Counted from the first letter of the stretch, positions 6,384-39,643 are shown. The stretch: DNA of 39,643 nucleotides from an uncultured bacterium (GCA_937928475.1 CALFVE010000217.1:1-39643), one strand, 5' to 3'. The notes: generated by a model not told the origin, from the sequence alone. Program-made: numbers and translations.

Positions 6384-6402
6384 CAGCGACCCTCCCGTTT
6401 GG

Positions 6403-13745: not shown

Positions 13746-13755
13746 GGGAGCCAAC

Positions 13756-14826: not shown

Positions 14827-14902
14827 GCGGTGGGCGCAGCATCTGGTCGCATTGGGGGTACGACGGGCAGGCCGCCCGTCGTCTCCGTACCGAGGTGAGG
14901 CG

Positions 14903-18056: not shown

Positions 18057-18245
18057 TGTTCGTTTCCTCTCCGCCGGCCGGGAGTGACCGGCCGGTTGAC
18101 CGGGGCAGGAGTAGTGTGCGATCCCTGCGAACAGGAGTCGAGGGAGAGACAGGCGAAAGGCCTGCACTGCGCGAAGCGCGGTCTCGGCGCGGGGAAGACG
18201 AGGCATGACCGGCCGCCGCGCGGCCGCTCGAGCGGAGCACTCACC

Positions 18246-19130: not shown

Positions 19131-19157
19131 GCAAGCGCCGGGCGCCCTAGCGGAGAA

Positions 19158-19529: not shown

Positions 19530-19733
19530 CAGGACTCTCCTCTCCGCGAGGCTGGTTGCAAGCATCAGAGCGTGAAGGCACGGGCCGAGACAGACCGGCG
19601 TGGCCACTCATCACCGCCGGGTCTTGCGCGATCAGTTCCGCCTACGCAGGGCGGTAACCTCTTGGCGCAAGGAGGTATTGTTCGTTGCCCTCGCGAAAGC
19701 CTCCGCACACGGCTGCTGGGCGAGAGGTGAGCG

Positions 19734-20411: not shown

Positions 20412-20462
20412 ACGCGCCCGCCGGCGGCGCTGAGCGGGTGCGGGAGGGAGGTCGTCACAGTG

Positions 20463-21698: not shown

Positions 21699-21750
21699 GG
21701 CAGGCGCTGGCGGCTCCAGACTCTGCCTCGTGTATCGAGAGGCATATCCC

Positions 21751-22548
21751 TCAGGCCAGGTCTGCGATACTCTCCAGCACGTAGTCCGGCTGCACGCCGG
21801 AGGCGGCGAGCCGGCGTCGGTCGGTCACACCGGTCAGCACCAGGGCCACCGCCACCCCGGCTCGTCGGCCCAGTTCCAGGTCGGTTTCCAGGCGGTCGCC
21901 TACTAGCAGGCACTCCCCCGGCGCCAGTCCCCACTCGCGGGTGATCACTTCCAGCATCAGCGGAGAGGGTTTGCCCGCCACTGCTTCCACGCGACGCCCC
22001 GAGGCAGCCTCCAGCAAGGCGACGAAACTGCCAGTGTCGAGGACCTCCTCCCCGCCGGGCAGCGGGCAGGTGACATCGGGGTTCGTGGCCACAAACCGGG
22101 CGCCCCGGCGCAGGGCTTGGAGCGCGCGGTTGAGATCGGCATAGGTGACGCTGCGATCCCAGGACACCGCCACCACCTCCGCTTGCTCAGGATCGTCGGT
22201 GAGCGCAAAGCCACCGCGCAGCAGTTCCTCCCGCACCGGCGCTTCCCCCAACACGAGGAGGCGCCGGCCCATGCCGGCCTCCTGCAGATACAGGCGCAGG
22301 GCGACCGGAGAGTTGATGACCTCGGTGGCCTCGGTCGGGATGCCCAGCCGGCTGAGTTTCGCCGCATACTCCTCCGCGCGGCCGATCGGCTTGTTGGAGA
22401 TGTAAGCCAGGCGCTTGCCGGCGGCGCGCAAACGGGCTACCGCACGGTCGGCGCCGGGGATAAGTCGCTCCCCGAGGTAGACGGTGCCGTCCAGGTCGAG
22501 TATGTAGCCGGCATAGTCATGCAAGAGGCGCGTGCGAGGGTCAATCAT
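21751..22548 (-). CDS. HAD-superfamily hydrolase, subfamily IIA (NagD-like sugar/nucleotide phosphatase)
   Basis: ATG 22548 overlaps the mtnP stop (ATGA at 22545-22548). Motif I is YILDLDGTVYLG, motif II is AYISNKP, and the C-terminal motifs are GKPSP and LLVGDRLETDLELG. Confidence 0.85.
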   Translation of the reverse strand: MIDPRTRLLHDYAGYILDLDGTVYLGERLIPGADRAVARLRAAGKRLAYISNKPIGRAEEYAAKLSRLGIPTEATEVINSPVALRLYLQEAGMGRRLLVLGEAPVREELLRGGFALTDDPEQAEVVAVSWDRSVTYADLNRALQALRRGARFVATNPDVTCPLPGGEEVLDTGSFVALLEAASGRRVEAVAGKPSPLMLEVITREWGLAPGECLLVGDRLETDLELGRRAGVAVALVLTGVTDRRRLAASGVQPDYVLESIADLA

Positions 22549-23309
22549 GATGACGGGCAGCGGCAGGAACGCTCCGGGGGGATGCGCACGACGGCTTCTT
22601 CGAGCAGCCGAATCAGGTCGCGACGCTTGGCGTCTATGAGCGCGGTTACTTCCTGGGCGGAGAGACGGTGCTCCGGCTCCACCCCGGCCGCCGGGTTGGT
22701 GACCACGCAGATGCTGGCATAGCACAAGCCGGCCTCGCGGGCAAAGACCACCTCGGGCACGCCGGTCATGCCCACCACGTCTCCGCCCAGCAGCCCGAAC
22801 ATTCGAATCTCAGCAGCGGTCTCGAAGCGGGGGCCTTCCGTGCAGACATACACAACTTCCTGCGTGGGGCCCATGCCCAGCGCCTCGGCGGCGGCCGCAA
22901 GGTGCGCGCGGAGTTCTTCGCAGTATGGTTCGGTCATATCTACGTGCCGCGGAGGATAGTCGGGAGGCTCGAAGAGCGAGCGGGGCCGCCCGCAGGTGAA
23001 GTCGAGGAACTGCGCGGCCAAGCACAACGAACCGACGGGCAAGGAGGCGCGGAGCGCACCGACGGCATTGAAGGCAATCACGCGGTCGCAGTGCAGCATC
23101 TGCAGAGCCACCAGGTTGGCGCGATAGTTGACCTGATGGGGCAGCAGACTGTGTTCGCGCCCGTGGCGGGGAAGAAAGACCGCTTCCCGGCCGCTGATGG
23201 TCCCGGCGTAGGCCGTGACTGCGCCAAACGGGGTGGTGACCGTGATAGGCTCCCAGCCCGCTTCGCCGATTTCGTAGAGTCCAGTACCGCCGATGATGCC
23301 GAAGGCCAT
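22545..23309 (-). CDS. mtnP: S-methyl-5'-thioadenosine phosphorylase / MTAP-family purine nucleoside phosphorylase
   Basis: GGGAG lies upstream of ATG 23309. Motifs MAFGIIGGTGLYE, FLPRHGREHSLLPHQVNYRANLVAL, YVCTEGPRFETAAEIRMF, GGDVVGMTGVPEVVFAREAG and VTNPAAG. Confidence 0.85.
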   Translation of the reverse strand: MAFGIIGGTGLYEIGEAGWEPITVTTPFGAVTAYAGTISGREAVFLPRHGREHSLLPHQVNYRANLVALQMLHCDRVIAFNAVGALRASLPVGSLCLAAQFLDFTCGRPRSLFEPPDYPPRHVDMTEPYCEELRAHLAAAAEALGMGPTQEVVYVCTEGPRFETAAEIRMFGLLGGDVVGMTGVPEVVFAREAGLCYASICVVTNPAAGVEPEHRLSAQEVTALIDAKRRDLIRLLEEAVVRIPPERSCRCPSS

Positions 23310-23342
23310 GATACGAGCTCCCTGAGGGATGGCGCCCGCCCG

Positions 23343-25331
23343 CTAGGGCCAGGGAAACATAGGCGCCTGGGTATGGTAAATGAAGGAGATGACACTCCAG
23401 AATACCGCCATGACGAACTCCCCAAAGATCAGGCCCAGGAAGAAGGGACGCAGCCGAAGGTAGGTCTTAATCCCCCCGTAGCGAGTGATGGCCGTCTTCA
23501 GCAGCCAGGCGATAAGCGCCGGGAACCAGAAGACGCACATAATCCAGGTGACGGAGAGCGCCGCGCCCAGGGGGTGCAGCGGCCACCAGACGTAGAGGCG
23601 GCGCATCGTGCCCAGGAACAGGCACAGAGCAATCCCGACGGCGAACCAGAGGAGGCGCGAGATGCGGTACTCTTCGATGCCCTCCATGAGCGGGGCCATC
23701 TCGTGCCAAAACTGCTGGTTGTTCCCAATGTACAGATACCTGTACATGGTGATCGCGCCGCGCTCATAGGTAAGCGCCAGGTGGAAATACCCGGCAACCA
23801 CAATCGCAAAGACCAGCGCCAAGATGATGACCGGGGTCATCTTGCGGCGAGGGAGGCGGACGCCATCGGCGAGGTTCTGGGCGTCCAGCATGCCGGTGAG
23901 GGTGACCCCGCGCAGGTCCCGGGTAAACATGGCGTTGGTGAAGGCGAGGAGGGTGAGGTTGGTCTTGCCCATGAGACTGCGTCGTGTGAAGAAGCTCCAG
24001 ATATCGGAGGGAGTGAAGGAACCTTCGGCCATCGGCGCGCCCGCCTCGGAGGTGGCGCGCGCCATGATTACTGCCTGCACGAACATGTAGATGCCGAACT
24101 CAGTCAAGGCGACGCCGACGCTGCCGCCCGCGGCCCGCCACCAGAAGACGATTCCCACCACTGCTAGCACGATGAGCCAAACGGCAGTGCGAAAGCGAAC
24201 CAGAGTATTGGTGGCAGAGGGGTCGCCCACGGCCTGCCGCCGCCACACGTCGCGGACCCGCACCCAGCCGGTAAAGACCATTAGGCCCACCAGGGCGAAG
24301 GACACACCAGCGGTTTGGTCAGCCACGAAGGCCATGGCCGCAGCGTGCGCCCCACCGGGGGCTACGCCCAGGGCAGAGCCGACCACCTCCTGGAGCCGCG
24401 CCAGCACAAAGAAAAACCACAGACTGAAGACCATTTCGCTGGAGAGAAGATAGAAAAAGCCGACCCCCGCCATCGAGAACCACATCTCGGTGTAGCCCAT
24501 ATTTCTCCAGGGCATTTGCTGAAACTGAATGCGATACTGAACCCGCATCAGGGGAAAAACCGGCCAGATGTTGTGGAGGCCCTTGAGGCCGAAGTAGAGG
24601 GTGGGGAGGGCAAAGCCGATCCACATGAGCGGATTGCGGAGGAAGTCGGCAGCGGCGGTGGGGGTAGCGGCTAGTTCCAGCGGCAATCTGGTGAGGGGAA
24701 AGGCGAGGTGCTCCTCGTCCGCCCAGAGGCGGTAGACGATGGCCGCCATCCCCACGAAGCACATGTAGACCAGCCCGTAAAGCACCAGCCACAAAGCGGC
24801 GGGGGCCAGCCAGGCAGCCCAGGGAAGGGCGACGCCGGCCGGAAGTCCCTCATAGTACCACTTGATCACCGGCTGGGCCGCGTCGCGGGCGGGATTCCAG
24901 GGCACGAGCGCGGGCTTGATGTGAGGGAAGTACAGGGCCTGCCAGTGATTGGCGGGAGTCGCGAGGTAGTTGAGGCCGGCCAAGGTCGGATAAAGGTCCT
25001 CAGTGAGGCCTCGGGAGGCAACCATCGAGGACAGCACCATCATGACATAGATGACTACCAGTTCGCCCGGACGCAGGCGGGCGCGGGGCGAAAGCCAGCC
25101 AGCTACGCGGTTGAGAAGGACGATAACGAACAAGAGGGCGATGGCGACCGGCGGGATTTGCAGGAAGCCGATCATGATAGCGCCGGTGACGTACTCCGCC
25201 CAGGCTACCACCGCGCAGACGACCACCGATATGCCTAAGCCGAGTACCACAGCGCGAGGGGTGATGCCATCCCGAAGTCTGGGGGACTCCCGGGCGGGGA
25301 GCACAGCGGCTAGGGGCGGGTTGGCGGCCAT
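23343..25331 (-). CDS. Large (~662 aa) polytopic membrane protein of unknown function (about 14+ TM helices); possibly the DUF6785/DUF6784-type family
   Basis: The long ORF has real hydrophobic periodicity (VVLGLGISVVVCAVVAWAEYV, PPVAIALLFVIVLLN, LVVIYVMMVLSSMV, WLVLYGLVYMCFVGMAAIVY, FSLWFFFVLARL, WLIVLAVVGIVFWW, VIILALVFAIVVAGYF, WFAVGIALCLFLG, WIMCVFWFPALIAWLL, FFLGLIFGEFVMAVFW). I recognised no transporter signature. The DUF assignment is only a recollection. ATG 25331 is preferred over 25391. The stop is 33 nt upstream of the mtnP start. Confidence 0.8.
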   Translation of the reverse strand: MAANPPLAAVLPARESPRLRDGITPRAVVLGLGISVVVCAVVAWAEYVTGAIMIGFLQIPPVAIALLFVIVLLNRVAGWLSPRARLRPGELVVIYVMMVLSSMVASRGLTEDLYPTLAGLNYLATPANHWQALYFPHIKPALVPWNPARDAAQPVIKWYYEGLPAGVALPWAAWLAPAALWLVLYGLVYMCFVGMAAIVYRLWADEEHLAFPLTRLPLELAATPTAAADFLRNPLMWIGFALPTLYFGLKGLHNIWPVFPLMRVQYRIQFQQMPWRNMGYTEMWFSMAGVGFFYLLSSEMVFSLWFFFVLARLQEVVGSALGVAPGGAHAAAMAFVADQTAGVSFALVGLMVFTGWVRVRDVWRRQAVGDPSATNTLVRFRTAVWLIVLAVVGIVFWWRAAGGSVGVALTEFGIYMFVQAVIMARATSEAGAPMAEGSFTPSDIWSFFTRRSLMGKTNLTLLAFTNAMFTRDLRGVTLTGMLDAQNLADGVRLPRRKMTPVIILALVFAIVVAGYFHLALTYERGAITMYRYLYIGNNQQFWHEMAPLMEGIEEYRISRLLWFAVGIALCLFLGTMRRLYVWWPLHPLGAALSVTWIMCVFWFPALIAWLLKTAITRYGGIKTYLRLRPFFLGLIFGEFVMAVFWSVISFIYHTQAPMFPWP

Positions 25332-25581
25332 GCGGGAACCTCGACAGTAGAGCGAATGCGATCGGCCAGCGGCCCGTGGGGAGTTCGTCAAGCAAGGCCC
25401 CGCAACCTTCCGCGTACGTGTTCCCCGCGCCTCCTCCCTCAGCGCTCCGGGGGCCGGCGCGCCGGGTTGCTGCCCGGAACCGAACTTTGCGGGAGCAGCG
25501 CCGTCCTGAAGGAGTACAGCCCCCCTCGAAAGAAATCACTGAGGGTAGGGGTCAATCTCTGTACCGGCGGGAGGTGCGGCT

Positions 25582-27692: not shown

Positions 27693-28331
27693 CTACCGCC
27701 CGTAGAGGACCTCCAGGCTCGTCTTGGCCAAGACCTTGCCCTCGATGGCCTTGAGGACCTCTTCGCGGTTCGCTCCCGGTGGCAGCCCTGACTTCTCCTT
27801 GAGTGCGTACAGGGTGAACTGGTAGCGATGGGGCGGTCCCGGCGGCGGCGCCGGGCCCATGTAACCGGGCTTTCCCGCGCTGTTCAGCCCCTGGCGGCAG
27901 GCAGGGGTCGCGACCTCCGTCTGCTTGAGCACGTTTTCCGGCAGGCCGGAGAGGCCGGGGGACAGGTCATAGACCAGCCAGTGGTTGAAAATCCCTCGCG
28001 GCGCGTCCGGGTCATCGCAGATCAGCGCCAGTTCCTGAGTCTCGGCGGGCGGCTCAGTCCAAGACAGGGGCGGAGAGACATCCTGCCCGTCGCCCGTGTA
28101 CTTGACCGGCATGCGCTCGCCCGCCTGGAAGGCAGGGCTGGTGAGTTTCCAGGTGGTGCTGGGCTGCTCTGCGGGGGGGCTGGATACCGCGGGCGGGGGC
28201 TGTGTAGGTAGCGAGGGAGGCTGGGTGGCAGCCCGCTCCCTCCCGCAGGCGGTGAACACCGCCAGAACCGTTGCTGCCAGGAGCAGGCGCCCGGCGGCGA
28301 AAATTCGCTCTTTCCTTCGCATTTTGCTCAT
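27693..28331 (-). CDS. YbhB/YbcL family Raf-kinase-inhibitor-like (PEBP) lipoprotein
   Basis: Lipoprotein signal LLLAATVLAVFTACG, then a Pro-rich linker. PEBP motifs DVSPPLSWTEPP, ALICDDPDAP, FNHWLVYDL, GYMGPAPPPGPPHRYQFTLYAL. The start may be ATG 28322 rather than 28331 on RBS spacing. Confidence 0.9.
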   Translation of the reverse strand: MSKMRRKERIFAAGRLLLAATVLAVFTACGRERAATQPPSLPTQPPPAVSSPPAEQPSTTWKLTSPAFQAGERMPVKYTGDGQDVSPPLSWTEPPAETQELALICDDPDAPRGIFNHWLVYDLSPGLSGLPENVLKQTEVATPACRQGLNSAGKPGYMGPAPPPGPPHRYQFTLYALKEKSGLPPGANREEVLKAIEGKVLAKTSLEVLYGR

Positions 28332-28388
28332 CTCCCCTCTCAGGCACGGCAGCCGGGGCCGGCGAAAGACGGGTCTGCTGCCGCGTTC

Positions 28389-29548
28389 TCAGTTGTCTCT
28401 TCCGACGATCAGATCCGAGAAGAAGGTCTGGTGTGAACTGGTTGGCGAGAAGAACTGGGTCATGACGTTGTCCAGGTGCGGCTGATCGCCGGGGCCGCCA
28501 CTGCCCAGGATCAGGTACTGCGGCGCGCCCTGGTGCTGGCGGCCGCGGGCGACCTGGTGGTCCTGAACCCACTGCTTCCCGTCCGCCGAGCAGGAGAAGG
28601 TGATGGTGTCGGGCTGGAGGGATATACGGACCCAGTTGGCCGTGTGGGGCCACCAGTTGGGCACGTAGGCGGTGCTAATCGGCAAGCCCGCGCGCGGCGG
28701 CTGGTCGCTGACCACATAGATGAACTTTCCGCTGGTGGGGCCGGGAGTGGCCTGAACGTATTCGCCGTTGGGCCAGTACAGGAAGAGGCTCCCGCCGCGC
28801 AGGCGTCGTTGAGAGCACCGGAAGCGTTCCAGGCATTCCAGAAGTACCCCAAGTAGGTGCGGTCCAGGTTGGGCCGCCAGACGGTGCCGTCGGCGGGGGG
28901 CTGGAGGCTGATCGAGGCCAGGGGCACGCGCATCTCACAGACCCAGCGGGTGCCGTCCACCGAGTTGGCCAGGTCTGCGCCGCTTTCCCAGGAGTTGTGA
29001 GCCTCGTTGAGCAGGGCCACGAATTTGCAGTCCCACAGGGTACCGAGGGCGTTGGCGGCCAGGTAGTAGGTGCAGAAGTCGTAGCGGTTGACCTGCTCGC
29101 CGGAACCCGGCGCGAGCATCATTTCTAGGCAGTCGTCGCCGATGATGCGGAGGTTATCATGCTCGGAGCAGGCGGCCACGATGGTGCTGGTGTTGGAGTC
29201 AATCGAGTCCAGGGCCACGTAAAGGTACTGGGAATCCCAACAGAGGTAGAATACCGGCTGCTCCTCGCGTACCACCTGGGGCAAGGCGTTGGGGTAGGCC
29301 TCGAACATGGTGAGGGTGGCCGCGTACTGCCACTCGCCGGGCGAGAGGCGGCCGTCGAGGACCGGGGCCTGCCGGCAGCGCGGGATCGTGACCTCCGGCT
29401 CGGAACGCTCCGCCGGAGCGCACCACGTCGCAGTGCGCAGCGCGCAAGCAAGCAGGGACCAGAGCAGCGCAAGGAGTCTGAGGCGAGCGCTCAAGGGCAG
29501 AGACTTCACCCTCTGACAAGAACTCGGGTTCGAGGCGCGGCTATTCAC
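28389..29548 (-). pseudogene. Frameshifted gene for a secreted CBM9-like + C-terminal jelly-roll-like domain protein (either a true pseudogene or a 1-nt sequence error)
   Basis: The span is 1160 nt, not a multiple of 3. Track ORF 28511..29548 is credible up to ...RPNLDRTYLGYFWNAWNASGALNDA (signal peptide LLALLWSLLACAL; CBM9-like APVLDGRLSPGEWQYA, QYLYVALDS, DDCLEMMLAPG, RWVCEMRVPLASI). After that it becomes Ala/Pro/Ser/Arg junk. A second frame is open from the same point and reads RGGSLFLYWPNGEYVQATPGPTSGKFIYVVSDQPP...NWVRISLQPDTITFSCSADGKQWV...PQYLILGSGG...DLIVGRDN* (stop at 28389). It aligns with the C-terminus of the upstream 1175-aa protein. The frame switch is near 28795-28812. Confidence 0.7.
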
Positions 29549-32500
29549 GGCCCAGGATCAACTCCCCGATCCAGCCCTGGTACAACCCCGTGTCCCACTG
29601 GGCGTCGTTGCTGAAGACTTCGTTCTCGCCTTTGGAACCGCGACCCAAGATAAGTAACTGAGGAGGGCCGGCGAAGGCCTCGGGTCGGGGCACCTCGGCT
29701 TCCAGGGTCCAGGCGCGACCGTCGAGGGAGGAGCAGAAGGCGAGACTAGCAGGGCGCAAGGCAAGGCGGAGCCAGAAATCGAGCCGGTTGTCATCTTGTA
29801 CGCTGAAGGCGCGGCCCCCCAGCGGGATGCGCCGGGCGCCCCAGCCGCGTATGTTGAGCGTGTCTTCGCCGGACTTGCCACCGGTGAAGAAGGTGTAGCG
29901 GCCCCGGCCCCAGTACAGCCCGAGGCCCGGGTTCCATTCGGCCGCGCCCCCGCTAGGGTAGACCTGCACGCGGGCCTGCACCACCGTCGCCTCGGGCGGG
30001 AAAGGGCGGGAGAGGTACTCGTACTTGTAGTACTTGCCGAGGAAGGTCACCATGCCTCCGGCCGGTACAATTTTCGCCTCGGCGGGATTTGCCGGAGAAA
30101 TATGTGTGCTCCAGATTGGCTCCAGCTCGGGGCCGGCGAAGTTGGCGGCGTAGAGCACCTCTCGCGGCCCCCGGAGGTCCGTGCCGGAGAGCGGAGCCAA
30201 GGAGTTGGGGTTGTGGTCCACACGGACTCGACCGAACAGAGCGGGGCGGTCGTTCGAAGAGGCAGGGACATCCTCACCGTAGGAGTTCTGCGCGGAGAGC
30301 GTGACCAGGACTTTGCGCCCGCGATACTCAGTGAGGGGGACCTCGCGAGGTTGCCACTCCCGGGTGACGGGGACCGTCTCCTCCCAGACCTGCTTGCCGT
30401 TGACCAGCACACGAAGCACGAGGGGCTTGGGGAGGTAGGACTGCTTGCTGTCGTGATCGGGGGCGTAGGCCAGGTCGAATCTGAGCATCGGCTGCCCCTC
30501 GGGGACGAGTTGCACCCACTCTTCTGCCCAGCCTCGGAACAGACCGGACCCAATACACAGCGTGGGATACTCCTGCTCCCCGACTTTGCGCTTCTCCACC
30601 CAGATACGCGAATTGTAGGACCACCGGAGATTGGGAACGCCCCGGGCCAGCGACTGCCCGGTCGCGCCGGCAAAGTCGCTGCGGAAACGCGTGTCCTTCG
30701 GCGGAGAGTCCTCCCAGACAAAGACCAGACCGCCGGGAATGGCAGTGGGGATACTGACTTCCTGGCCCGGCTCGAAGGGTCCTTCGAGGTCCCGTTCGGC
30801 AGTGCATATACGGAGGCACTGGCGGCGGAGGGTAACGGCGACCTCTCCCGTGGAGGCAGAATTGGACAGGCTGCCTAGTTCAAGCACTAGTTGCTTTCGG
30901 CTGGGGCGCAGGGCATTAAGGAAGGCCTGCGGCGGGAGCGCGGTGACGAGCCGTGTGTCCGAGGGTGGGGGCGCGCCGAGCAAGAAGGGATAAGTGCGCT
31001 GGGGATTGAGCCCAATTGGCCGGCCGTCCCGGTAGGCAAGCCAGTGCTGGAGGTGGGTCGGCTCGCCCAGCGGGCTCTGCGCCTGGCCCCGATAGCGCCC
31101 CAGGCGGATCCGTAGGTTGGCGCCCTCCTCCTCGACGAAAGCGTCCCCGAAGGGCATGCGCCGGAACTGGAACCACCGACCTCCTTTGCCGCGGTAGTAG
31201 GCCAGCGCTGGTTCCTCCCAGGTCAGCGGAAGGTCGTTGAAGAGTTCTTCCTCCGTGAAGAGGCGGGCCCGCGCTTCAGACCACTCATCGCCCACCACTA
31301 ATTCGGGAAGGCAAGCGAGCAGGGCGCTGTGAGCGGGATCTATGCCCTCCTCGCGGCACCAGGTGTAACTGCCCCAAAGGGCGGCACGGAGGGGGTGATT
31401 GACCACGGTCTCGACGCTGGGATAGGCGCGGGGAAGGTTCAGGTGGGACCCGCCTTCCCAGGTGTAGAAGACGCGATTCATGATCCATTCGCCCTGAACC
31501 TCGCTCATCAGCGCCAGTTCCGGGTACGCCGCCTGGCTCTTTCCGAGCGCCTGCTCCTCGCCCTGCCGATAGGTGAGACCGCCCCTCACTTTGCGGTCAG
31601 GAGGGAAATGGTGGCCGCCGTCACAGCCGGCCACATCCAGGTAAGCGCCGTCCATTTGATGGAAGCGGCAATAGTTTGCGAAATTGCGCACAAAGTACTG
31701 CTGGAAGATCTTGGCCCCAGGATGCAAAAGCCAGAGTGAGGCCACGTCGAGGGGCGAGTAGTACCCGGCGGCGATCGGGCGGAAGTGGTCGTGGAACCTT
31801 TCGGGAGGGCCGTCATAGTCCGGGTTGAACCGGTAGCCTTCCGGCAGCCAGCCCTTGGCGGCCAGGTCCTTGAGGCGTTGTTCGGAGGCAGCGGGAGGCA
31901 TCACCAGTACCCAGGGGTGGTAGCCCAGCCAGCGGAAGCCGTGCTGCTTGAGGGCGGCGATTGCTTCGGGCGCGGGCCGCGGGGTGGTGGAGTGACGATG
32001 GTCACCGAAGAGCACGATGCGGTCGCCGTTCCAATAAAAGAGCAGGAGTTTGGTAGGGTCAACGCGGCGGGCCAGGTCGGCGTAGTAGGCAGGGGCGTCC
32101 TGGGGAGAGGGCACTTCGGTGTACACGGCGTGAATGTTGCGGACCCAGGTACAAGGATTCTGCCACAGAGGCTTTGCGCCGGTTTCGGCCTCAAACTGCG
32201 CTCGGTACCGGCGGGCAGCCGCCACCCAGGAAGAGTGGACACTGAGGCGCCAGCGACCGGAGGCCAGGGTGCCGGGTTCGGTTTCCCGAGGGTCGCGTGT
32301 AGTAGTGAGAATCAGGCTGTCGGCGGAGGGCGTGTGGGCAACACTGAGGTTGCCGTAGGTGAACACGGACTCGCGCCATAGCGCCAGCCAGCCTCGCTCG
32401 CCTTCGATGAGAGCGATGAGGGGAGAATACAGGTTGTTGGCCCGATGGACGCAGTGGTCCACGCGGGGGGAGTCTTCGCGAGTATATTGCGTCCCGCAGC

Positions 32501-33068
32501 CGAGCACCACCGACTTGCCGCGCAGGTTCAACAGGGGCAAATCGAGCGAGAGAACGGGCTGAGGCGTGCCAGGTTGGCGCGAAACGGCTTGCAGCAGGAG
32601 GTCGCCCGTGTCGGGGTCCACCTGGGCTCGATAGCGCAGTTCATCGCCAGTCCCGGCTCCGGGGAAGCCTCGATACACAGCCTCCATGTCTGTCGGCCCT
32701 AACCGCCGGTACTCAGGAACAGCCTGGGGATCGGGTCGGCGGCGGGCGGCCTGCAGCACTTGGTTCCCTACCCATTGCTGAGGGTCTTTCTTCCAGCCGC
32801 TGGCGAACTGCCAGGAGTCCTCAACGGTGGTGCTGCCGCGAGGAATGAGTTGCCAGGCCTCGCTGGGATCGCCCGAGGAGAAGACCTCGCCGGTGGTGAG
32901 ATCCTTGACTGAGGTGACAGCGCCGGCCTGCAGGATCACTTCCAGCACAGGGCTGCGGATGACCAAGCGGTTGTCCTGGGGCAGGAAGAGCGCTTGGCCG
33001 TCGCCCCACGCAGAGGTGCAGCCGGCGAGCGTCACCGCGAGGAGAAGCCCCGTGCGGCCGAAGGTCAT
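29541..33068 (-). CDS. Large (~1175 aa) secreted lipoprotein with an unassigned (possibly glycoside-hydrolase-like) core and a C-terminal jelly-roll/LamG-like domain
   Basis: ATG 33068 gives MTFGRTGLLLAVTLAGC (lipobox LAGC); GTG 33080 and GTG 33077 are alternatives. The long ORF has normal amino-acid composition throughout. The central region (FYWNGDRIVLFGDHRH...HGFRWLGYHPWVLV...MDGAYLDVAGCDGG...LMSEVQGEW...) has alternating beta/alpha character suggestive of a TIM barrel, which is inference only. The C-terminal domain is DFWLRLALRPASLAFCSSLDGRAWT...PQLLILGRGS...ELILGRE. Confidence 0.85.
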   Translation of the reverse strand: MTFGRTGLLLAVTLAGCTSAWGDGQALFLPQDNRLVIRSPVLEVILQAGAVTSVKDLTTGEVFSSGDPSEAWQLIPRGSTTVEDSWQFASGWKKDPQQWVGNQVLQAARRRPDPQAVPEYRRLGPTDMEAVYRGFPGAGTGDELRYRAQVDPDTGDLLLQAVSRQPGTPQPVLSLDLPLLNLRGKSVVLGCGTQYTREDSPRVDHCVHRANNLYSPLIALIEGERGWLALWRESVFTYGNLSVAHTPSADSLILTTTRDPRETEPGTLASGRWRLSVHSSWVAAARRYRAQFEAETGAKPLWQNPCTWVRNIHAVYTEVPSPQDAPAYYADLARRVDPTKLLLFYWNGDRIVLFGDHRHSTTPRPAPEAIAALKQHGFRWLGYHPWVLVMPPAASEQRLKDLAAKGWLPEGYRFNPDYDGPPERFHDHFRPIAAGYYSPLDVASLWLLHPGAKIFQQYFVRNFANYCRFHQMDGAYLDVAGCDGGHHFPPDRKVRGGLTYRQGEEQALGKSQAAYPELALMSEVQGEWIMNRVFYTWEGGSHLNLPRAYPSVETVVNHPLRAALWGSYTWCREEGIDPAHSALLACLPELVVGDEWSEARARLFTEEELFNDLPLTWEEPALAYYRGKGGRWFQFRRMPFGDAFVEEEGANLRIRLGRYRGQAQSPLGEPTHLQHWLAYRDGRPIGLNPQRTYPFLLGAPPPSDTRLVTALPPQAFLNALRPSRKQLVLELGSLSNSASTGEVAVTLRRQCLRICTAERDLEGPFEPGQEVSIPTAIPGGLVFVWEDSPPKDTRFRSDFAGATGQSLARGVPNLRWSYNSRIWVEKRKVGEQEYPTLCIGSGLFRGWAEEWVQLVPEGQPMLRFDLAYAPDHDSKQSYLPKPLVLRVLVNGKQVWEETVPVTREWQPREVPLTEYRGRKVLVTLSAQNSYGEDVPASSNDRPALFGRVRVDHNPNSLAPLSGTDLRGPREVLYAANFAGPELEPIWSTHISPANPAEAKIVPAGGMVTFLGKYYKYEYLSRPFPPEATVVQARVQVYPSGGAAEWNPGLGLYWGRGRYTFFTGGKSGEDTLNIRGWGARRIPLGGRAFSVQDDNRLDFWLRLALRPASLAFCSSLDGRAWTLEAEVPRPEAFAGPPQLLILGRGSKGENEVFSNDAQWDTGLYQGWIGELILGRE

Positions 33069-33261
33069 TCTCGTCACCACTTACCCAGGCAGGGAGCGTT
33101 CGCGTCAATATTTCCCTCGCACGCAGGGTATTCCTTCTGCTGTACACCACCCGCAAACTTTCGGGCGGCCCGAGGGAGGAAAGGACGGTCGAGGGGAGGA
33201 AGCGGTCTTTGTCTGTGCGCAGTCTTGCCCGAACGCTTATGGACTCGGAGGCTGACTTGCC

Positions 33262-36200
33262 ATGAGAACTCCGCACGCTGTTCGACGCTTCGTGCTAGTG
33301 CTGCTGCTGGGGGCACCGCTCCTGCAGTGCGCTTCGCGGCCGGCGGGAGCCGCGGCCTACCCCTTGCCGGGGCCGCAGTTGGAGGAGGTGCCAGGGCCGG
33401 TTCTGTCTCAAGAGGGTATTCCTGCGCCGGCGACCTGGCCCGCCTTGCGCTATGAGCAGCCTCTGCGGATCCTGGCCATCACCAGCAAGGGGAATTCGGC
33501 GGCGGCGTATCAGCGGATTGCGCGGCGGATGCGCGCCAGCCTTGACCTGCGTTATCTAGGCGGAGGGGATGACATCTACCATGTCAACGACAAGTGGATT
33601 GAGCCGAAGGACAACCCGACGGCCCAAGAACTGCGGGAGTATACGGTCAAGGTCATCCGCGACACGGTGAGCGCGGCGGCCGCGGAGCCTCGCTATGAGG
33701 TAATCTTCTGCGACAATCCCGGCCAGATTCTGGCAGACGCTCAGTTGCAGGAGGGCCTATTGGCATGTGCCCGGCAAGGGACCGTGCTGGTGGTATGCGC
33801 CAACTATTATCCGGCAGAGGGTAGTCCCCTGGCGCCGCTGTGGCCGGGAAAGGCCGAGCCGCGCAACTCCTGGATGGCGGGCGGAGCCCGGCGCACGGAG
33901 GCGGCGGAGGTGGCGGGGCTGCCCCTGGAGCGGCTGATGGGGCACACCTGGATACCGCTTACCTCCGCGGCGGAAGGAGCAGTGGCGCTGGCCACGGGAG
34001 AGTCGGGGGCGTGTTTCCTGCGACGAGTAGATCGAGGGGCGGTGGTGTTCTGCCCCACGGGGCCCATCTCCCGCAGGCACGACGCCATCGCGGCGCACGG
34101 GCGGCGCTATGACCACGATGAGATCTGGCTGCGCTTGTGGGATCAGGTCTTATACCTGCTGGTGCGGGGCGAGAAAGCCTTCCCCGCCCTAACCGATCTG
34201 ACTGCGGGAGAGACAGAGGCGCCGCCAGGGCAGGAGTATGTGCTGGCGGGCAAAGTGATCAACCGCACTTTCGCGGGCCCGCTGACCTTGTCGGTGCATG
34301 TCACCACGCCGCGGGGGAAGGTGGTTTACTCGAACACCGAGACGGTGAATCTGCCCGCAGGTCAAGAGGCGGCGCGGGAGATACGCGTACCGATCCGACC
34401 CGAATGGGCCGCCGGGCTCTATCCGGTGTACCTGACCCTGGGCGAGGCCAAGACGAAACGGCAGTTTCATCAGTCGCTGCAGTACATCCCGGTCACCGGG
34501 TCCTTGAAGTTGACTCTGGTCGCCGACAAACGGGGGTATCAGACAGGCGAGACCGCGAATTTGCTGCTCACGGCCACGGCGGCGGCGCCTTGGCAGGGGC
34601 GGCTTCTGTTCGGCGTGTATGACTTCCGCGGGCGGCTCCTGGCCGCGGAGGAGAGACCGGTGACGCTAGGCGCGGAGCCTCAGGACCTGACCTTCACCTA
34701 CCGAATGAGCGACCACGGGGTGCGGGACGATACTTTCTGGGCGGAGGTGGCGGCGGTGCGGGACGGTCAGGAGTGGGAACGGGCGGAAGCCAAGTTCTAT
34801 CGGTATGATCGCTGGAGCATGCGCAACGAGTATCAGTGGTCCACCTGGTCAGGAGTGGCTTGCGCGGCGCCCTCGCTGGTGCCGATGGGGATGCGGATGA
34901 TGGCGCACGCTGGGATGAATGCCTTCGGCTACCCGGGGCGGAGTGAACTCTACTACCCGGCAGAGCGGTGGAGTTGGCGGTACTACAACGAGGGAGTGGG
35001 GATGAACACCTGGGGGCCGGTGATCGAGTACGAGAATGAGGCGGAGATTGAAGCGCAACTGCTGAAAGAGGCCGAAAAGGCTCCCAGCAACCCGGACTTG
35101 ACCTCCGCCGCCCTGGTGCTCGCCTCGGTGGGCGAAGAGGCGGGTTTCAAGCACGGCTGGGGGACGCGCTATTACTGGGAGGAGCCGGTAGCGCCGGAGA
35201 AGGCTTGCCGGGCCTTTCAGTGGTACCTGAAAACGAAGTATCCCGACCTGGCAGCGTTGAACGCGGTCTGGAGGACCAACTACCAAACCTGGGACGAGGT
35301 CAAACTGACCGAAGAGTTCTCCGGCAGGAGTCCGGCTCTGGAGGCGGACGGCTGGGCTCACCCCAAGGGGTCGCCGCTAGGGGCCGGGGTGACCGCGGTC
35401 AGCCTGGCCCCCTATCAAGATACCGCCGATTTCTATAACTGGTACTATGACCAGATCGTGAACACAGCCCGGCGGATCCTGCGGGAGAAGATCAACCCGG
35501 TGACGCTGACCATGTCCTCGGCGCCCACTATCGGTTCGGCCAACTACGACGTGCGCCTGACCGGGCCCAGCGCTTGGAACGAAAGCCAGTCGTACAGCAT
35601 CAACACGGGGCCGGAGCCGGGGTTTGGCCTGATTTGGGGGCACTTTGACTGGTCAGTGATGACGGAGAACATGTTCTGGGGATGGCTGCTGACCCGCAGC
35701 GGGCACAACAATTACTGGGTGGATATTCCACTCATGTTCAATGGTGACATGAGCCATACGCGGGCCTCCTTCGCCATGCGGCGCTGGACGCACCGGCTGG
35801 CCGGGCATGAGCGGATCATCCTGGACAGCCGGCCCTTCGTCTCCGAGGTGGGGGTTCTGGGGCACAACGGGCTGGGACAAGATCGGACGCGGCTGAACAT
35901 GACGGACTCGGTGAAAGTGGCGCTGCAGCAGAGCGGCTTCGGCTTTGGCGAGGCGGACCCGCAAGACCTCAGAGGCTACAAGGCGTTGTTCGTGGTCGGC
36001 AGGCAGGCGATTTCGGCCGCGGAGGCGGAGCGGCTGGATGAGTTCGTCCGCGGTGGAGGGACGCTGGTATTCACTTCGCGCTTCGCGACACAGACAGAAC
36101 TGGGGATGCCGCAGCCGGTGACGCCGGGAGCGGGGCTGGCGGAGAAGTGGGGGCTGCAAACCACCCCAGAGATAGCCAACATCCCTCAGTATCACAGCAA

Positions 36201-38100
36201 CGAGACCCTGCCCTTCTCCTTGGACGGAGTTGACCCAACCTTGGCGGGGGCAAAGATGGTGGGGTTCAAAATCTTCCGTGAGCAGGTCAAGGCAGAGGGC
36301 TGGCAGCAACTGGCGGCCTATGAGGACGGGACGCCCGCGCTGCTGACCCGCACACTCGGCAGGGGGAGGCTCGTATACCTCAACGCCATCTACCAAAGCC
36401 ACTGGTACATTCAGTGGGTGACGCCGACGGGGCCGGAGCGCCAGGGCTTCTACCGGCTCATTGAGTGGCTGTGCGGTCAGGCTGGCGCGCGCCGCAACCT
36501 GCGCCTGGAGGGCAACCTGAACCAGGTTCTGCACATGGCGGTGCAGCATTTCACCGATCCCACTGGGCAGATTCAATACGCGATTGTGCGCACCAACGGG
36601 GAGGTGCCGTGGACCAACGGAACGCTTCGGTGGCTGGGGCCGCAGACGGCAGCGTACGATGTCCTGGCGGGCGAGGTGGGGCAGCCGACGCCGCTGAAGG
36701 GCAAGGAGATTGCCCTGAACCTGCGACCAGGGGATGGGAAGTTGCTGGCCTTTGTGCCGGCGCCAGTGCAGACGATCCAGGTAACGGCTGCCCCCGCGCG
36801 AGTCACGCTGGGCAGTCCTTTGCGAGTCAGAGTGGAGATTCTGGATCGGCAGGGCCGGCCAGTGGCGGGCGAGTTCCCGCTGGAGTTGCGGGTGGAAGGA
36901 CAAGGCGGCCGCATCCGAGGCTTGGACCGCTCCTTTTCGCTACGCAGCAGCGGGGAGTACGTGGTCAACACCGCGCTGAACGAACCGGTCGGGCGCTGGA
37001 CCATCACTGTCACGGACGGCATCAGCGGCCTTTCGGGGAAGGCCCAGGTCGAGGCAACCGGGGCACCGGGGGCAGCAACTGCGCCGGGCTTCCTCGCCTG
37101 GGGCTGGCCCTCGGAGGTGATGGAGCCGATGCAGGTATCCGCCGAGGAGTTCGTCTCTCGCCTCCGGGCCCTGGCTGATCTATATCGTCGGGACTTGTCC
37201 GACGAGAACTGGATGGTCAAGCAGTACCTGGGCTACTACTACGACTACTTCCCGGGCACGCGACACGACCTGCTGCGTCCGCTGAACGACTGCAACTGGC
37301 CGGACTACGTGCAGGCGCTGCGGGAAGCGGTGAACGGTGGCGCGACCTTTATCCTCACCGGAGAGGATGTGGGGATTGACCCGGCGACAGGGCTGGGGAC
37401 CTGGCCGCACCATGAGGGTCGGCAGTTGGAGGCGCTGAGCGCGGCCCTGGCCGGCGCGAGGTGGACGCTGGGCACGCGCGACGGGGACACGGTTGTGGCT
37501 CGCCTGGGAGCCGGGCGCGTTGTTCTTTGCCGGGAGTCCATAGACGCGGCGGGCAACACCAATCCGGAGATGGCGCGGTGGCAGCAGCGCTGGCTGGCGG
37601 AACTGCGGCAGGCGACCGGCGGAACGGAGTCGGCCGTGTCCGTCCCGGCGCCGAACGCGGAGAAACTGGTCCGCTGGTGGGCAGGGCAGGAGGCCTTGAC
37701 CTCGGGGCCGCGCACCGTGACTTGGTTCGGCGGCAACTACCGTGAAAGAGAGTTCACGCTGAGTCCCAATCGGCCGCTGGGGGAGACCTTCGCCGTCGTC
37801 CTGCCGCCGACCGGCGAGTTGCAGGAGGCCCAGTTCTCACTGCTGGTCGAGGAGGGGGCCGACCCCCTACAGGTGGACGTGGGCTGTGATGACGTGGTGG
37901 ACAGCGAGATTGAGCCAGCCGGAGGACAGGCCGCACCGGTCAAGTTGACCGAGGAGATTCGCCGGTACCTGGGATGGCGGGCCAAGCAAGGGGACCTGCC
38001 CTACCGGGACGACAGCCGCTGGCGCGTGGTGCCCATCCGCATTACCTCGGCCGGCGCCGCCAAGGTGCAGGTGAAGGATCCGATCGTGACCGTGCAGTAG
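33262..38100 (+). CDS. Giant (1612 aa) secreted multidomain protein with GH42-like beta-galactosidase-type core plus trimerisation (GATase1-like) domain, Ig-like modules and unassigned regions
   Basis: GGAGG lies 11 nt upstream of ATG 33262. Signal peptide MRTPHAVRRFVLVLLLGAPLLQCASRPAGAAA. GH42-like order of elements: RYYNEGVG (candidate NE acid/base), CRAFQWYLKTKYPDLAALNAVWRTNYQTWDEV (a hallmark GH42 segment), SVMTENMFWGW (candidate nucleophile region), then YKALFVVGRQAISAAEAERLDEFVRGGGTLVFTSRF (GH42 middle-domain pattern). Ig-like segments include LTLSVHVTTPRGKVVYSNTETVNL, LKLTLVADKRGYQTGETANLLLTA and IQVTAAPARVTLGSPLRVRVEILDRQGRPVAGEFPLELRV. Confidence 0.85.
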   Translation: MRTPHAVRRFVLVLLLGAPLLQCASRPAGAAAYPLPGPQLEEVPGPVLSQEGIPAPATWPALRYEQPLRILAITSKGNSAAAYQRIARRMRASLDLRYLGGGDDIYHVNDKWIEPKDNPTAQELREYTVKVIRDTVSAAAAEPRYEVIFCDNPGQILADAQLQEGLLACARQGTVLVVCANYYPAEGSPLAPLWPGKAEPRNSWMAGGARRTEAAEVAGLPLERLMGHTWIPLTSAAEGAVALATGESGACFLRRVDRGAVVFCPTGPISRRHDAIAAHGRRYDHDEIWLRLWDQVLYLLVRGEKAFPALTDLTAGETEAPPGQEYVLAGKVINRTFAGPLTLSVHVTTPRGKVVYSNTETVNLPAGQEAAREIRVPIRPEWAAGLYPVYLTLGEAKTKRQFHQSLQYIPVTGSLKLTLVADKRGYQTGETANLLLTATAAAPWQGRLLFGVYDFRGRLLAAEERPVTLGAEPQDLTFTYRMSDHGVRDDTFWAEVAAVRDGQEWERAEAKFYRYDRWSMRNEYQWSTWSGVACAAPSLVPMGMRMMAHAGMNAFGYPGRSELYYPAERWSWRYYNEGVGMNTWGPVIEYENEAEIEAQLLKEAEKAPSNPDLTSAALVLASVGEEAGFKHGWGTRYYWEEPVAPEKACRAFQWYLKTKYPDLAALNAVWRTNYQTWDEVKLTEEFSGRSPALEADGWAHPKGSPLGAGVTAVSLAPYQDTADFYNWYYDQIVNTARRILREKINPVTLTMSSAPTIGSANYDVRLTGPSAWNESQSYSINTGPEPGFGLIWGHFDWSVMTENMFWGWLLTRSGHNNYWVDIPLMFNGDMSHTRASFAMRRWTHRLAGHERIILDSRPFVSEVGVLGHNGLGQDRTRLNMTDSVKVALQQSGFGFGEADPQDLRGYKALFVVGRQAISAAEAERLDEFVRGGGTLVFTSRFATQTELGMPQPVTPGAGLAEKWGLQTTPEIANIPQYHSNETLPFSLDGVDPTLAGAKMVGFKIFREQVKAEGWQQLAAYEDGTPALLTRTLGRGRLVYLNAIYQSHWYIQWVTPTGPERQGFYRLIEWLCGQAGARRNLRLEGNLNQVLHMAVQHFTDPTGQIQYAIVRTNGEVPWTNGTLRWLGPQTAAYDVLAGEVGQPTPLKGKEIALNLRPGDGKLLAFVPAPVQTIQVTAAPARVTLGSPLRVRVEILDRQGRPVAGEFPLELRVEGQGGRIRGLDRSFSLRSSGEYVVNTALNEPVGRWTITVTDGISGLSGKAQVEATGAPGAATAPGFLAWGWPSEVMEPMQVSAEEFVSRLRALADLYRRDLSDENWMVKQYLGYYYDYFPGTRHDLLRPLNDCNWPDYVQALREAVNGGATFILTGEDVGIDPATGLGTWPHHEGRQLEALSAALAGARWTLGTRDGDTVVARLGAGRVVLCRESIDAAGNTNPEMARWQQRWLAELRQATGGTESAVSVPAPNAEKLVRWWAGQEALTSGPRTVTWFGGNYREREFTLSPNRPLGETFAVVLPPTGELQEAQFSLLVEEGADPLQVDVGCDDVVDSEIEPAGGQAAPVKLTEEIRRYLGWRAKQGDLPYRDDSRWRVVPIRITSAGAAKVQVKDPIVTVQ

Positions 38101-38158
38101 CGCCAGGCGGACCGGTGCGGCTGGGCCGAACTGAGAGTCGAAGCGAGGTGAGCCGATA

Positions 38159-39643
38159 ATGTTCGAAGCGGGCATCAAGAGGCGCAGGTTGGTGATGAGT
38201 ATCGTGGCTTTGGTCGCATTGCTGATGGCCGCCGCCAGGTTGGTGGCGGCCGATGAGCCGTTCGTGCTGGTGCCGGCGCCGGGGAAGGTAGTGGTGGACG
38301 GCAAGCCCGATGACTGGGATCTATCGGGAGCCTACGGCCCGCGGACCTTCGACGCGGAGTTCTTGGGGGAGTATGACGCCACGTTCTACGGGATGTATGA
38401 CGATACCAACCTGTACCTATTCTTTCACGTGCACGACGCCACGCCTCTGGTCAACAAGGGCATCGTGGAAGAGGGCAACTACTGGGCGGGGGACTCGATT
38501 GAGGTGCGTTTCTCCTTGAACCCGGAGGACGGCGTGCCGCCCAAGCAGGACAGCCCGGACATTCGCCACATCGCCCTGTGGTACAACAGCGACCGGGAGA
38601 AACCGCAGTACAAGGTGCAGGCGACCATGAAATACAACGCCTGGCCGGATACGGGTCTGCAGGTGGTCTTCCGCAAGTGGGAGGACGGCCGGGGGTGGGA
38701 CTGCGAGATGGCGGTGCCCTGGAACACGCTATCGGAGACGCAGCGACCGAAACCAGGCGAGTATATCGGCTGGTGCATGGCCGTGCTGATGGGCAACCAG
38801 CCGGGAACGGGTTTTTGGCGCAAGATCAACGTGCTGGCCAACGACATCAACTACCAGAGCACCTCGGAATGGCATACGCCGGGAGCATTCTTCTCGCCCA
38901 CCGGGAAGGTAGCCCCCAATCCCAAGACGCAGACACCGCCGGCCACGACGGCCCCGGGGGCGGTGCCGATCACCCACATCGAGTACACGCTGCCGCGAGC
39001 AGGGGAGGTTTCGCTGGCGGTGTACAACCCCCAGGGGCGGATGGTGCGGACGCTGCTGGTGGCCGAGCCACAGGATGCCGGGCCTCAGCGGGTAGCCTGG
39101 GACGGATACGACGATGACGGCAATCCGCTGCCGCCGAGGGAGTACCGCTGGAAACTGGCGGTGGGAGACGGCGTGCGGGCGACATACGTGATGGGGCTGC
39201 TCAACGGCGGCACTCCGAAGTACCCTACCGCCGACGGGAAGGGCAGTTGGGGCGGTATCTGGGGGAATGTGGTGGATACCGCGGCGGACGAAAGCGGGGT
39301 GTATCTGCTGTGGGAGATGGAAGAGGGACAAGGAGCGCTGGTCAAGATTGACCCGCAGGGGATGGTGATTTGGAAGCAGCACATACCCCAGGCGCTGGCG
39401 GCGTACCAGTCATGCTTGGCTTCCAACGGCGAGTACGTGGTGGTGGCATGTGGGCGCGGGCTGTGGCGGGTCAAGGCCTCCAACGGAGAATACGCGCCCT
39501 TCACTGCCAAAGACCCCTATGTGCAGTTACCCCCGCCAGACGGTTGGAAGGACCTGAAGCCGGAGGAGCGGGTGCAGCGGGTGCCGGAACTGGCGCGGCT
39601 GCCTTTCTTGAGCGCTGTAGAGCAGCACCTCACCGGCATCGCG
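38159..39643 (+). CDS. Secreted protein with CBM9-like N-terminal domain, FlgD-Ig-like domain and a further (beta-propeller-like?) region; 3' end runs off the window
   Basis: Absent from the ORF track because no stop lies in the window. ATG 38159 has GAGGTGAG 8 nt upstream, and the frame is open for exactly 495 codons to base 39643. My translation begins MFEAGIKRRRLVMSIVALVALLMAAARLVAADEPF (signal peptide). CBM9-like elements: APGKVVVDGKPDDWDLSGAYG, FYGMYDDTNLYLFFHVHDATP, GDSIEVRFSLNP, GWDCEMAVPWNTL. FlgD-Ig-like segment: ITHIEYTLPRAGEVSLAVYNPQGRMVRTLL...QRVAWDGYDDDGNPLPPREYRWKLAV (nt ~38960-39155). Confidence 0.82.
   Translation, partial: MFEAGIKRRRLVMSIVALVALLMAAARLVAADEPFVLVPAPGKVVVDGKPDDWDLSGAYGPRTFDAEFLGEYDATFYGMYDDTNLYLFFHVHDATPLVNKGIVEEGNYWAGDSIEVRFSLNPEDGVPPKQDSPDIRHIALWYNSDREKPQYKVQATMKYNAWPDTGLQVVFRKWEDGRGWDCEMAVPWNTLSETQRPKPGEYIGWCMAVLMGNQPGTGFWRKINVLANDINYQSTSEWHTPGAFFSPTGKVAPNPKTQTPPATTAPGAVPITHIEYTLPRAGEVSLAVYNPQGRMVRTLLVAEPQDAGPQRVAWDGYDDDGNPLPPREYRWKLAVGDGVRATYVMGLLNGGTPKYPTADGKGSWGGIWGNVVDTAADESGVYLLWEMEEGQGALVKIDPQGMVIWKQHIPQALAAYQSCLASNGEYVVVACGRGLWRVKASNGEYAPFTAKDPYVQLPPPDGWKDLKPEERVQRVPELARLPFLSAVEQHLTGIA

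Follow-up and report, generated by a model that had tools for sequence, protein, structure and literature searches.

A probable island of exported carbohydrate-active enzyme candidates in a metagenomic contig, composed of two independent gene pairs

Introduction

Planctomycetota and their relatives degrade recalcitrant glycans with largely uncharacterised enzymes, and in planctomycetes the genes for carbohydrate-active enzymes (CAZymes) are typically scattered. The described systems closest to the locus considered here are the polysaccharide utilization loci (PULs) of Bacteroidota, with their SusC/SusD proteins, regulators and transporters, and several single glycoside hydrolase (GH) families: the GH42 beta-galactosidases and alpha-L-arabinopyranosidases, the GH123 beta-N-acetylgalactosaminidases, and the GH101, GH129, GH31, GH36 and GH66 enzymes. 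GH101, GH129 and GH66 use an aspartate as nucleophile and a glutamate as acid/base. Here we analyze the last 12 kb of a 39,643-nt contig from an uncultured bacterium (CALFVE010000217.1, assembly GCA_937928475.1). The whole contig, a single metagenomic one of ~65-67% G+C, is called the window below. An earlier note on this DNA had proposed that four consecutive genes at its end, next to a gene for a PEBP-family lipoprotein, form one undescribed cell-surface glycan-processing system. Comparison with related loci points instead to a loose island of exported, CAZyme-like genes, probably two independent pairs placed back to back, with one gene decayed.

Results

The two pairs diverge from a common spacer. 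On the minus strand lie the gene for a lipoprotein of 1179 amino acids (aa; 29541-33080) and, following it, a broken gene (28389-29548, both pieces). On the plus strand lie the gene for a 1612-aa exported protein (33262-38100) and, after a gap of 58 nt, a partial gene (38159-39643), of which the 5' 495 codons are present before the contig end cuts it. Our open reading frame (ORF) map confirmed the positions given in the earlier note, including that of the PEBP gene (27693-28331, minus strand), which is 57 nt from the broken gene on the same strand. The spacer measures 181 nt (33081-33261), and the 193 bp first reported (33069-33261) holds if the lipoprotein begins at the ATG at 33066-33068, which makes it 1175 aa long. 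The claim of four genes stands insofar as four coding loci are present, but the broken gene appears to be dead, which leaves the cluster with three intact genes, including the one truncated where the contig stops. Export signals were found on all of the products, as had been claimed: the PEBP protein (VFTAC), the broken gene (SLLAC) and the 1179-aa protein (TLAGC) have PROSITE-type lipoboxes, and the 1612-aa and partial proteins have hydrophobic, signal-peptide-like N-termini without a lipobox. Only 2 of 23 members of the 1179-aa family carry a lipobox, and that of the window protein is a local feature.

We compared ~50 related loci, among them 19 distinct loci of the 1612-aa family (L004-L024, less two duplicates) and 34 of the 1179-aa family; antisense 'shadow' ORFs of conserved genes were disregarded when the flanking ORFs were clustered. 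Each pair recurs, but to a different extent. A member of the 1179-aa family is followed on the same strand, at gaps of 4-230 nt, by a giant gene with a GH123_N domain in seven of the ten full-length orthologous loci for which downstream DNA is available (L001/L035, L025, L026, L032, L033, L063 and L065); the partner is missing from L002, L064 and L066. The 1612-aa gene is followed by a true orthologue of the partial gene, which encodes CBM9 and FlgD_ig domains, in L004 only. A few other 1612-family loci have more distant FlgD_ig giants nearby, and in L005, which encodes the orthologue closest to the 1612-aa protein (75% identity), the neighbouring genes are unrelated. As a separate observation, L064 has a PhdYeFM antitoxin/PIN toxin pair directly 5' of its 1179-family gene (L064:4972-5642), and a GH123_N gene lies ~5 kb upstream.

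The two families do not meet elsewhere. No 1179-family gene was seen at any of the 19 distinct 1612-family loci, and no 1612-family gene at any of the 34 1179-family loci. Neither the four-gene order nor the divergent junction between the two large genes occurs in the ~50 related loci, none of which has a tblastn match to the PEBP gene. In the closest assembly, GCA_900174595.1, the two pairs sit on separate contigs. Because the arrangement is absent elsewhere, the pairs lie on different contigs in that relative and the PEBP gene is nowhere else a neighbour, the four-gene cluster appears to be a lineage-specific juxtaposition of two pairs, one half decayed, and not a conserved system. The neighbours found in related loci (sulfatases, GH20, GH116, further GH123_N and CBM9 giants, and GFO/IDH/MocA oxidoreductases) fit a general repertoire for the catabolism of complex glycans. 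No Sus-type, ABC-transporter or regulator gene was detected in the 12 kb, as the earlier note had observed. This Pfam and NCBIfam scan covered the five coding regions of 27.7-39.6 kb, that is, four ORFs of at least 200 aa, among them the N-terminal half of the remnant, and the partial gene; the six other ORFs of at least 200 aa, left unscanned, are shadow frames that fall within either of the two large genes or within the partial one.

The broken gene had been described as frameshifted. The frame break is real, but it is due to an internal deletion of ~3 kb, and the two pieces match the ends of intact orthologues. The intact counterpart of the broken gene is a 1358-aa gene in L001 (GCA_900174595.1), located 3' of the closest orthologue of the 1179-aa protein (P0001, 54% identity). 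By tblastn, the N-terminal fragment (28816-29548, minus strand; ~236 codons encoding the signal peptide/lipobox and a CBM9-like domain) is 62-68% identical to residues 23-230 of the L001 protein. The C-terminal fragment (28389-28796, minus strand; the last ~134 codons) is 59% identical to residues 1225-1358 and 54-60% identical to the orthologues in L025, L032 and L033; it covers the distal two thirds of a ConA-like jelly-roll of the GH43_C2/DUF1349 type and has a weak DUF1349 match. Intact genes of 1356-1398 aa in L025, L026, L032, L033, L063 and L065 match both ends likewise. These orthologues are ~1360-aa CBM9/GH123_N/ConA-like proteins without a sequence match to solved structures; GH123_N reaches 84 bits (E 7e-24) in the L001 protein, where only model positions 301-484 of 969 are covered. 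The window remnant retains the equivalents of residues 1-~230 and 1225-1358 only. About 1000 central codons (~3 kb) are missing, and with them all of the GH123_N match and the catalytic region.

The reading frame changes exactly at the deletion junction (~28797-28815, minus strand), where the sequence reads AAC GAC GCC TGCGC GGC GGG AGC. In the intact orthologue, the two breakpoints carry the motifs GGLNDARVGG and GGNDASGG, with the pattern G-G-(L)-N-D-A ... G-G, and this similarity of short motifs points to a deletion associated with microhomology, which left the two pieces in different frames. The ConA-like domain starts at about residue 1148 of the orthologue, and the retained C-terminal piece begins inside it; a product read in frame would therefore still be crippled by a truncated domain. 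No entry among 5.8 billion proteins covers both halves of a reconstructed in-frame fusion; because the same search missed known full-length orthologues, it argues no more than moderately against a short architecture of natural origin. Judged from its sequence, the broken gene is best regarded as a pseudogene, the remnant of a ~3-kb internal deletion rather than the product of a simple frameshift.

The 1179-aa lipoprotein has 31 homologues in an index of 5.8 billion proteins, one of them named as coming from a Planctomycetes metagenome-assembled genome (MAG). It has no Pfam or NCBIfam match, and its core matched no PDB sequence, either as a single sequence or as a core profile (A4); the full profile (A1) matched the PDB through the ConA-like tail only (GH43 xylosidase C-terminal domain, 6e-6). 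In an AlphaFold model built from 32 sequences (pLDDT 90.8, pTM 0.82), aa 30-282 form an N-terminal beta-sandwich, aa 285-611 a (beta/alpha)8 barrel, aa 625-960 a stack of beta-sandwiches and aa 970-1179 a ConA-like jelly-roll of the GH43_C2 type. When searched against the PDB with Foldseek, this model matched the GH101 endo-alpha-GalNAc-ase 5A55 (E 9e-22) and GH129 NagBb (TMt 0.62-0.64, with 0.64 to 5WZQ, and a root-mean-square deviation of ~6.4), as well as GH31 enzymes, a GH36-like galactosaminidase of Flavonifractor plautii, and GH36 and GH31 enzymes generally. Natural variants of ~690 aa (N-terminal domain and barrel) and ~950 aa (without the ConA-like domain) identify the N-terminal domain plus barrel as the conserved unit.

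The earlier note had recommended a search for conserved Glu/Asp pairs, and one is present in this barrel. D482, in the motif M-D-G-A-Y-L-D, and E527, in M-S-E, are invariant in 32 of 32 sequences of profile A1 and 13 of 13 of profile A4, and in the model each closes the C-terminal end of a barrel strand, the two strands (478-481 and 523-526) being consecutive. Their codons (31635-31637 and 31500-31502) bound the segment 31500-31637 on the minus strand. By analogy with the Asp/Glu pair of GH101, GH129 and GH66, the barrel would most likely act by a retaining, double-displacement mechanism with D482 as the nucleophile and E527 as the acid/base.

At greater distance, a search of 1.84 billion representatives with the core profile collects only 344 clusters at E <= 1e-3, of which 76 reach E <= 1e-30. 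Nine distant relatives were scanned with DUF6259 (PF19773): four scored above the cutoff (28.7 bits) and three below it, and three also matched GH66 weakly. Within the close family only 2 of 32 homologues match DUF6259, weakly (best E 0.005), and the window protein does not match at E <= 0.1. DUF6259 is itself uncharacterised and presumed to be a family of glycosidase-like barrels; the 1179-aa clade thus looks like a rare and divergent offshoot of this group, linked to it at the superfamily level only.

The 1612-aa protein belongs to a larger and more uniform family. Its 52 database matches comprise 50 homologues, the window's own protein and one partial sequence of 961 aa. The homologues are 42-75% identical over 74-100% of the query, 47 of them being 1472-1685 aa long and three 1307-1312 aa, and conservation is high across the full length. 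They come from metagenomes and from MAGs labelled mainly as Planctomycetota (Thermoguttaceae, Pirellulales, Planctomycetaceae), with Lentisphaerae and one Armatimonadota. The structure model spans aa 31-1230 (pLDDT 89.1), with the C-terminal aa 1231-1612 outside it. In this model an N-terminal alpha/beta domain is followed by a pair of Ig-like sandwiches, a TIM barrel, a second alpha/beta domain, a beta-sandwich and one more Ig-like domain.

A GH42-like core had been claimed for this protein, and the claim is borne out by several methods. The three-domain core (aa ~520-1165, 34819-36756, plus strand) superimposes on complete GH42 enzymes in Foldseek (TMt 0.60-0.68 over ~750-780 columns) and slightly less well on a GH35-like beta-1,2-glucosyltransferase and on GH164. 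The family profile finds GH42 structures in the PDB at 4e-9, and the protein matches GH42M (2e-9, 37.6 bits against a cutoff of 25.8). With hhalign, the core aligned with a set of seven annotated GH42 genes taken from plasmids at 98.5% probability (E 1.9e-15, 511 columns); hmmsearch of the core profile against two GH42 sequences gave a local match of 27 residues only. The core is, on these grounds, a candidate for a highly divergent beta-glycosidase of the GH42 type (clan GH-A); by the Pfam criterion it is not a GH42 member.

In the hhalign alignment, with low per-column confidence, E626 (codon 35137-35139) is paired with Glu141, the acid/base of the Thermus enzyme, and E625 with N140; both follow the model strand 618-623. 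E625, E626, D821 and D829 are present in all 48 sequences. Position 774 (codon 35581-35583) is acidic in 47 of 48 sequences (38 with E and 9 with D, the remaining one having H), and its surroundings, W-N-E774-S-Q ... P-E-P-G, parallel V-M-E312-Q-Q ... P-T-P-G when fitted by eye. We suggest E626 as the candidate acid/base and E774 as the likely nucleophile, with the invariant D821 as an alternative. A two-template hhalign comparison had placed D821 beside the nucleophile at low probability; that placement was dropped in favour of the seven-template alignment.

The partial protein has a signal peptide, a CBM9-like domain (CBM9_1, PF06452, 4.5e-5, 23.9 bits against a cutoff of 23.4), an FlgD-type Ig domain (FlgD_ig, 2.9e-10) and the start of a beta-propeller. 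Its orthologue, L004:15016-18879 (1287 aa, 69% identity over 481 aa), contains CBM9_1 (44.1 bits), FlgD_ig and an NHL-type beta-propeller with strong matches to the NHL-derived 'Pizza' designs and to the PAL and PknD propellers; no catalytic domain was recognisable in this CBM9/Ig/propeller protein. The modules said to link the genes are indeed shared, with unequal support. The C-terminal jelly-rolls of the broken gene and the 1179-aa protein are 34% identical over 80 aa (E 4e-13); the CBM9-like N-termini of the broken and partial genes are only weakly alike (24%, E 0.01), and CBM9_1 in the broken gene scores 20.0 bits, below the cutoff of 23.4. Both kinds of module are shuffled accessory domains, presumably with a binding role, and occur in many such giants of these genomes.

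Three further observations concern these modules. The ConA-like tail is common to both partners of the minus-strand pair: the L001 giant (13034-17110) is 28% identical over ~210 aa to window positions 29541-30173, and possession of the same C-terminal module by adjacent genes may reflect common targeting or substrate binding. Seven kb upstream of the cluster, a 412-aa ORF (20460-21698, plus strand) with a signal-peptide-like N-terminus and no Pfam match resembles the CBM9-like domain of the L001 giant in its N-terminal region (20481-21065, ~195 codons; 27% over 215 columns, E 5e-7) and would encode a further CBM9-like exported protein. Around the 1179-family gene of L002 (P0007) there are two GH42M plus CBM9 giants (1460-9332, minus strand, and 17144-23579, plus strand), which are not orthologues of the 1612-aa protein by tblastn, and three CBM9/Laminin_G_3 giants; these point to extensive shuffling of the same accessory modules among giant genes.

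Of the remaining features, the PEBP gene encodes a 212-aa lipoprotein of the YbhB/YbcL family (Pfam PBP 3.2e-39, 134.8 bits against a cutoff of 24; TIGR00481 3.6e-32, 111 bits against 57.75). A consensus scan found no sigma-70 promoter or terminator in the divergent spacer, and repeat, Rfam and tRNA scans gave nothing meaningful for the region or the window, no tRNA gene or Rfam family being detected across the 39.6 kb. The genes at 16.3-27.7 kb (PMT_2, UbiA, MgtC, HAD, PNP, DUF6785/6784, ACT and an HtpX-type M48 protease) are unrelated housekeeping genes. Among them, the HAD-hydrolase ORF (21751-22725, minus strand) and the PNP/UDP phosphorylase ORF (22545-23309, minus strand) overlap by ~180 nt as listed, probably through an over-extended GTG start of the HAD gene rather than a real overlap. 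Between the PNP/UDP phosphorylase gene and the ACT-domain gene, a 682-aa protein (23343-25391, minus strand) is matched end to end by DUF6785 (1e-122) and DUF6784 (2e-29), both strongly conserved and of uncharacterised function. GC skew is positive in every 2-kb window of 1-39643 irrespective of gene strand, and cumulative skew climbs monotonically. The host genome is high in G+C and probably that of a planctomycete; the assignment is based on the names of related MAGs, mostly Planctomycetota, and not on marker genes of the window.

Discussion

We consider it probable that the end of this contig is a loose island of exported CAZyme genes in which two independent pairs stand back to back and one gene has decayed. 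The minus-strand pair would consist of a lipid-anchored 1179-aa enzyme of alpha-glycosidase-type architecture and its usual operon partner, a ~1360-aa CBM9/GH123_N/ConA-like enzyme whose catalytic body has here been lost and whose remains are out of frame. The plus-strand pair would consist of the 1612-aa protein, with a divergent GH42-type beta-glycosidase core, and a CBM9/Ig/NHL-propeller protein. We infer that the substrates are complex glycans, possibly hexosamine-containing or sulfated. Of what the earlier note proposed, the exported, multi-domain, glycoside hydrolase-like proteins withstand comparison, as predicted products of sequence families for which we found no characterised member. 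The >2000 residues that it left unassigned are now nearly all placed in known folds by structure prediction and profile searches, and the single undescribed system is not supported, its gene order, divergent junction and PEBP neighbour being absent from all of the ~50 related loci, which goes half-way to the refutation that the note itself had named. What is conserved are the sub-pairs, one in 7 of 10 loci and the other in a single locus. It is plausible that the 1179-aa and 1612-aa proteins, whose folds are known but whose sequence families are uncharacterised, are new glycoside hydrolases; literature searches on DUF6259, PF19543/PF19773, GH123 with Planctomycetota, and new families related to GH101/GH129 returned nothing relevant.

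Several points weigh against this reading. The divergent spacer, at 193 nt, could still permit co-regulation in this organism. Since the window is a single metagenomic contig, the deletion might reflect faulty assembly or be present in only a minority of the population, and one of the two enzyme families may already bear a CAZy number. In the 1612-aa protein, the GH42 catalytic model PF02449 reaches only 15.6 bits against a cutoff of 21, over residues 646-687. The nucleophile of this protein is uncertain because the hhalign alignment has a gap opposite the GH42 nucleophile strand (F-W-V-M-E) and position 774 varies between E and D. The roles of D482 and E527, like those of E626 and E774, were assigned from strand position and profile alignment, not from superposition.

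That the four genes, with or without the PEBP gene, nevertheless form one co-regulated surface system served by the shared divergent promoter region seems improbable to us. The genes are adjacent, their products are all exported, they have CBM9-like and ConA-like modules in common, and in L002 the 1179-family gene is likewise divergent from a GH42M-containing giant. However, that giant has no tblastn match to the 1612-aa protein, the two families are mutually absent from each other's 19 and 34 loci, and the pairs are on different contigs in GCA_900174595.1; moreover, the PEBP neighbour is found nowhere else, one member is a deletion remnant, and there is no regulator or transporter. A sequencing or assembly artefact, either an intact ~1360-aa gene that was collapsed or an intact short CBM9 plus ConA protein with a single-base error, is somewhat easier to entertain but still unlikely. 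The window is one metagenomic contig, and neither fragment contains a stop codon; their identity to the orthologues (59-68%) is as high as that of the intact neighbouring gene (54%), with no sign of long decay. Against a collapse, the breakpoints are alike over only a few bases or residues, which we take to be far below assembler k-mer sizes; against a short protein, the halves of the in-frame fusion are covered together by none of 5.8 billion proteins, and the fusion would still be truncated within its jelly-roll.

We also doubt that the large proteins are non-catalytic surface, structural or adhesin-like molecules that merely retain glycosidase-derived folds, a view to which we give about as little credence as to the single system. 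It can draw on the sub-cutoff GH42 catalytic model, on the replacement of the Asn of the N-E motif by Glu625 and the E or D at the nucleophile position, on the lack of any sequence match between the 1179-aa family and a solved enzyme, and on the many Ig-like and lectin-like accessory domains. The acidic residues at the expected barrel-strand ends are, however, invariant in 32 and 48 divergent homologues, the barrel is the most conserved unit of the 1179-aa family, and the sulfatase, GH20, GH116 and GFO/IDH/MocA oxidoreductase genes found as neighbours in related loci are typical catabolic genes. A bolder proposal, which we hold tentatively and rate above these three though well below the two-pair island, is that the 1179-aa clade and its GH123_N partner make up a two-enzyme module, so far undescribed, by which Planctomycetota and allied phyla would cleave a specific glycan, possibly one with alpha- and beta-linked hexosaminides. 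In that case the 1179-aa clade would be the founder of a new CAZy GH family, with the ~1600-aa GH42-like family as a second candidate.

Through this analysis, ~2800 'unassigned' residues have become two testable enzyme candidates, the DUF6259 branch (D482, E527) and the 1600-aa GH42-like family (E626, E774), and a conserved operon partner, the GH123-like giant, has been identified for the first. The 1179-aa clade is notably rare among the candidates and has this conserved partner. The locus is also a cautionary case, in which a seeming frameshift is a 3-kb internal deletion and a seeming 'system' a juxtaposition that is not conserved. We regard the value of these findings as incremental for CAZyme discovery, possibly leading to new CAZy families in the future; they do not amount to a new kind of biology or system.

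Like Bacteroidota PULs, the window clusters genes for exported glycan-active proteins. Unlike them, it has no SusC/SusD, regulator or transporter, and its genes do not keep their order as one unit in other loci. Outside Bacteroidota one would not expect SusC/SusD, so that their absence is no sign of novelty. In its domain order (N-terminal beta-sandwich, (beta/alpha)8 barrel, C-terminal beta-sandwiches), the 1179-aa protein resembles GH129 NagBb (5WZN/5WZQ) and GH101 (5A55, 3ECQ) and, more broadly, GH31, GH36 and GH66. Its invariant Asp and Glu on consecutive barrel strands are candidates for the Asp nucleophile and Glu acid/base that GH101 and GH129 use. It differs from both in having no detectable sequence similarity to them and in its additional beta-sandwich stack and ConA-like C-terminal domain. 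The comparison with the GH123 beta-N-acetylgalactosaminidases applies to the intact orthologues of the broken gene, in which GH123_N is kept, whereas it is wholly deleted from the window copy.

The 1612-aa core was compared with GH42 beta-galactosidases and alpha-L-arabinopyranosidases (Thermus thermophilus A4-beta-Gal, Gan42B 4OIF and Bacillus circulans 3TTS). The protein is ~2.4 times longer than these enzymes, with ~500 extra N-terminal and ~450 extra C-terminal residues, and is exported; its core is 10-16% identical to solved structures, has E-E in place of N-E and apparently lacks the helix before the nucleophile strand. Like GH42, it combines a TIM barrel with a GH42M 'trimerisation' domain and a C-terminal beta-sandwich, and GH164 and the GH35-like beta-1,2-glucosyltransferase are its related relatives within clan GH-A.

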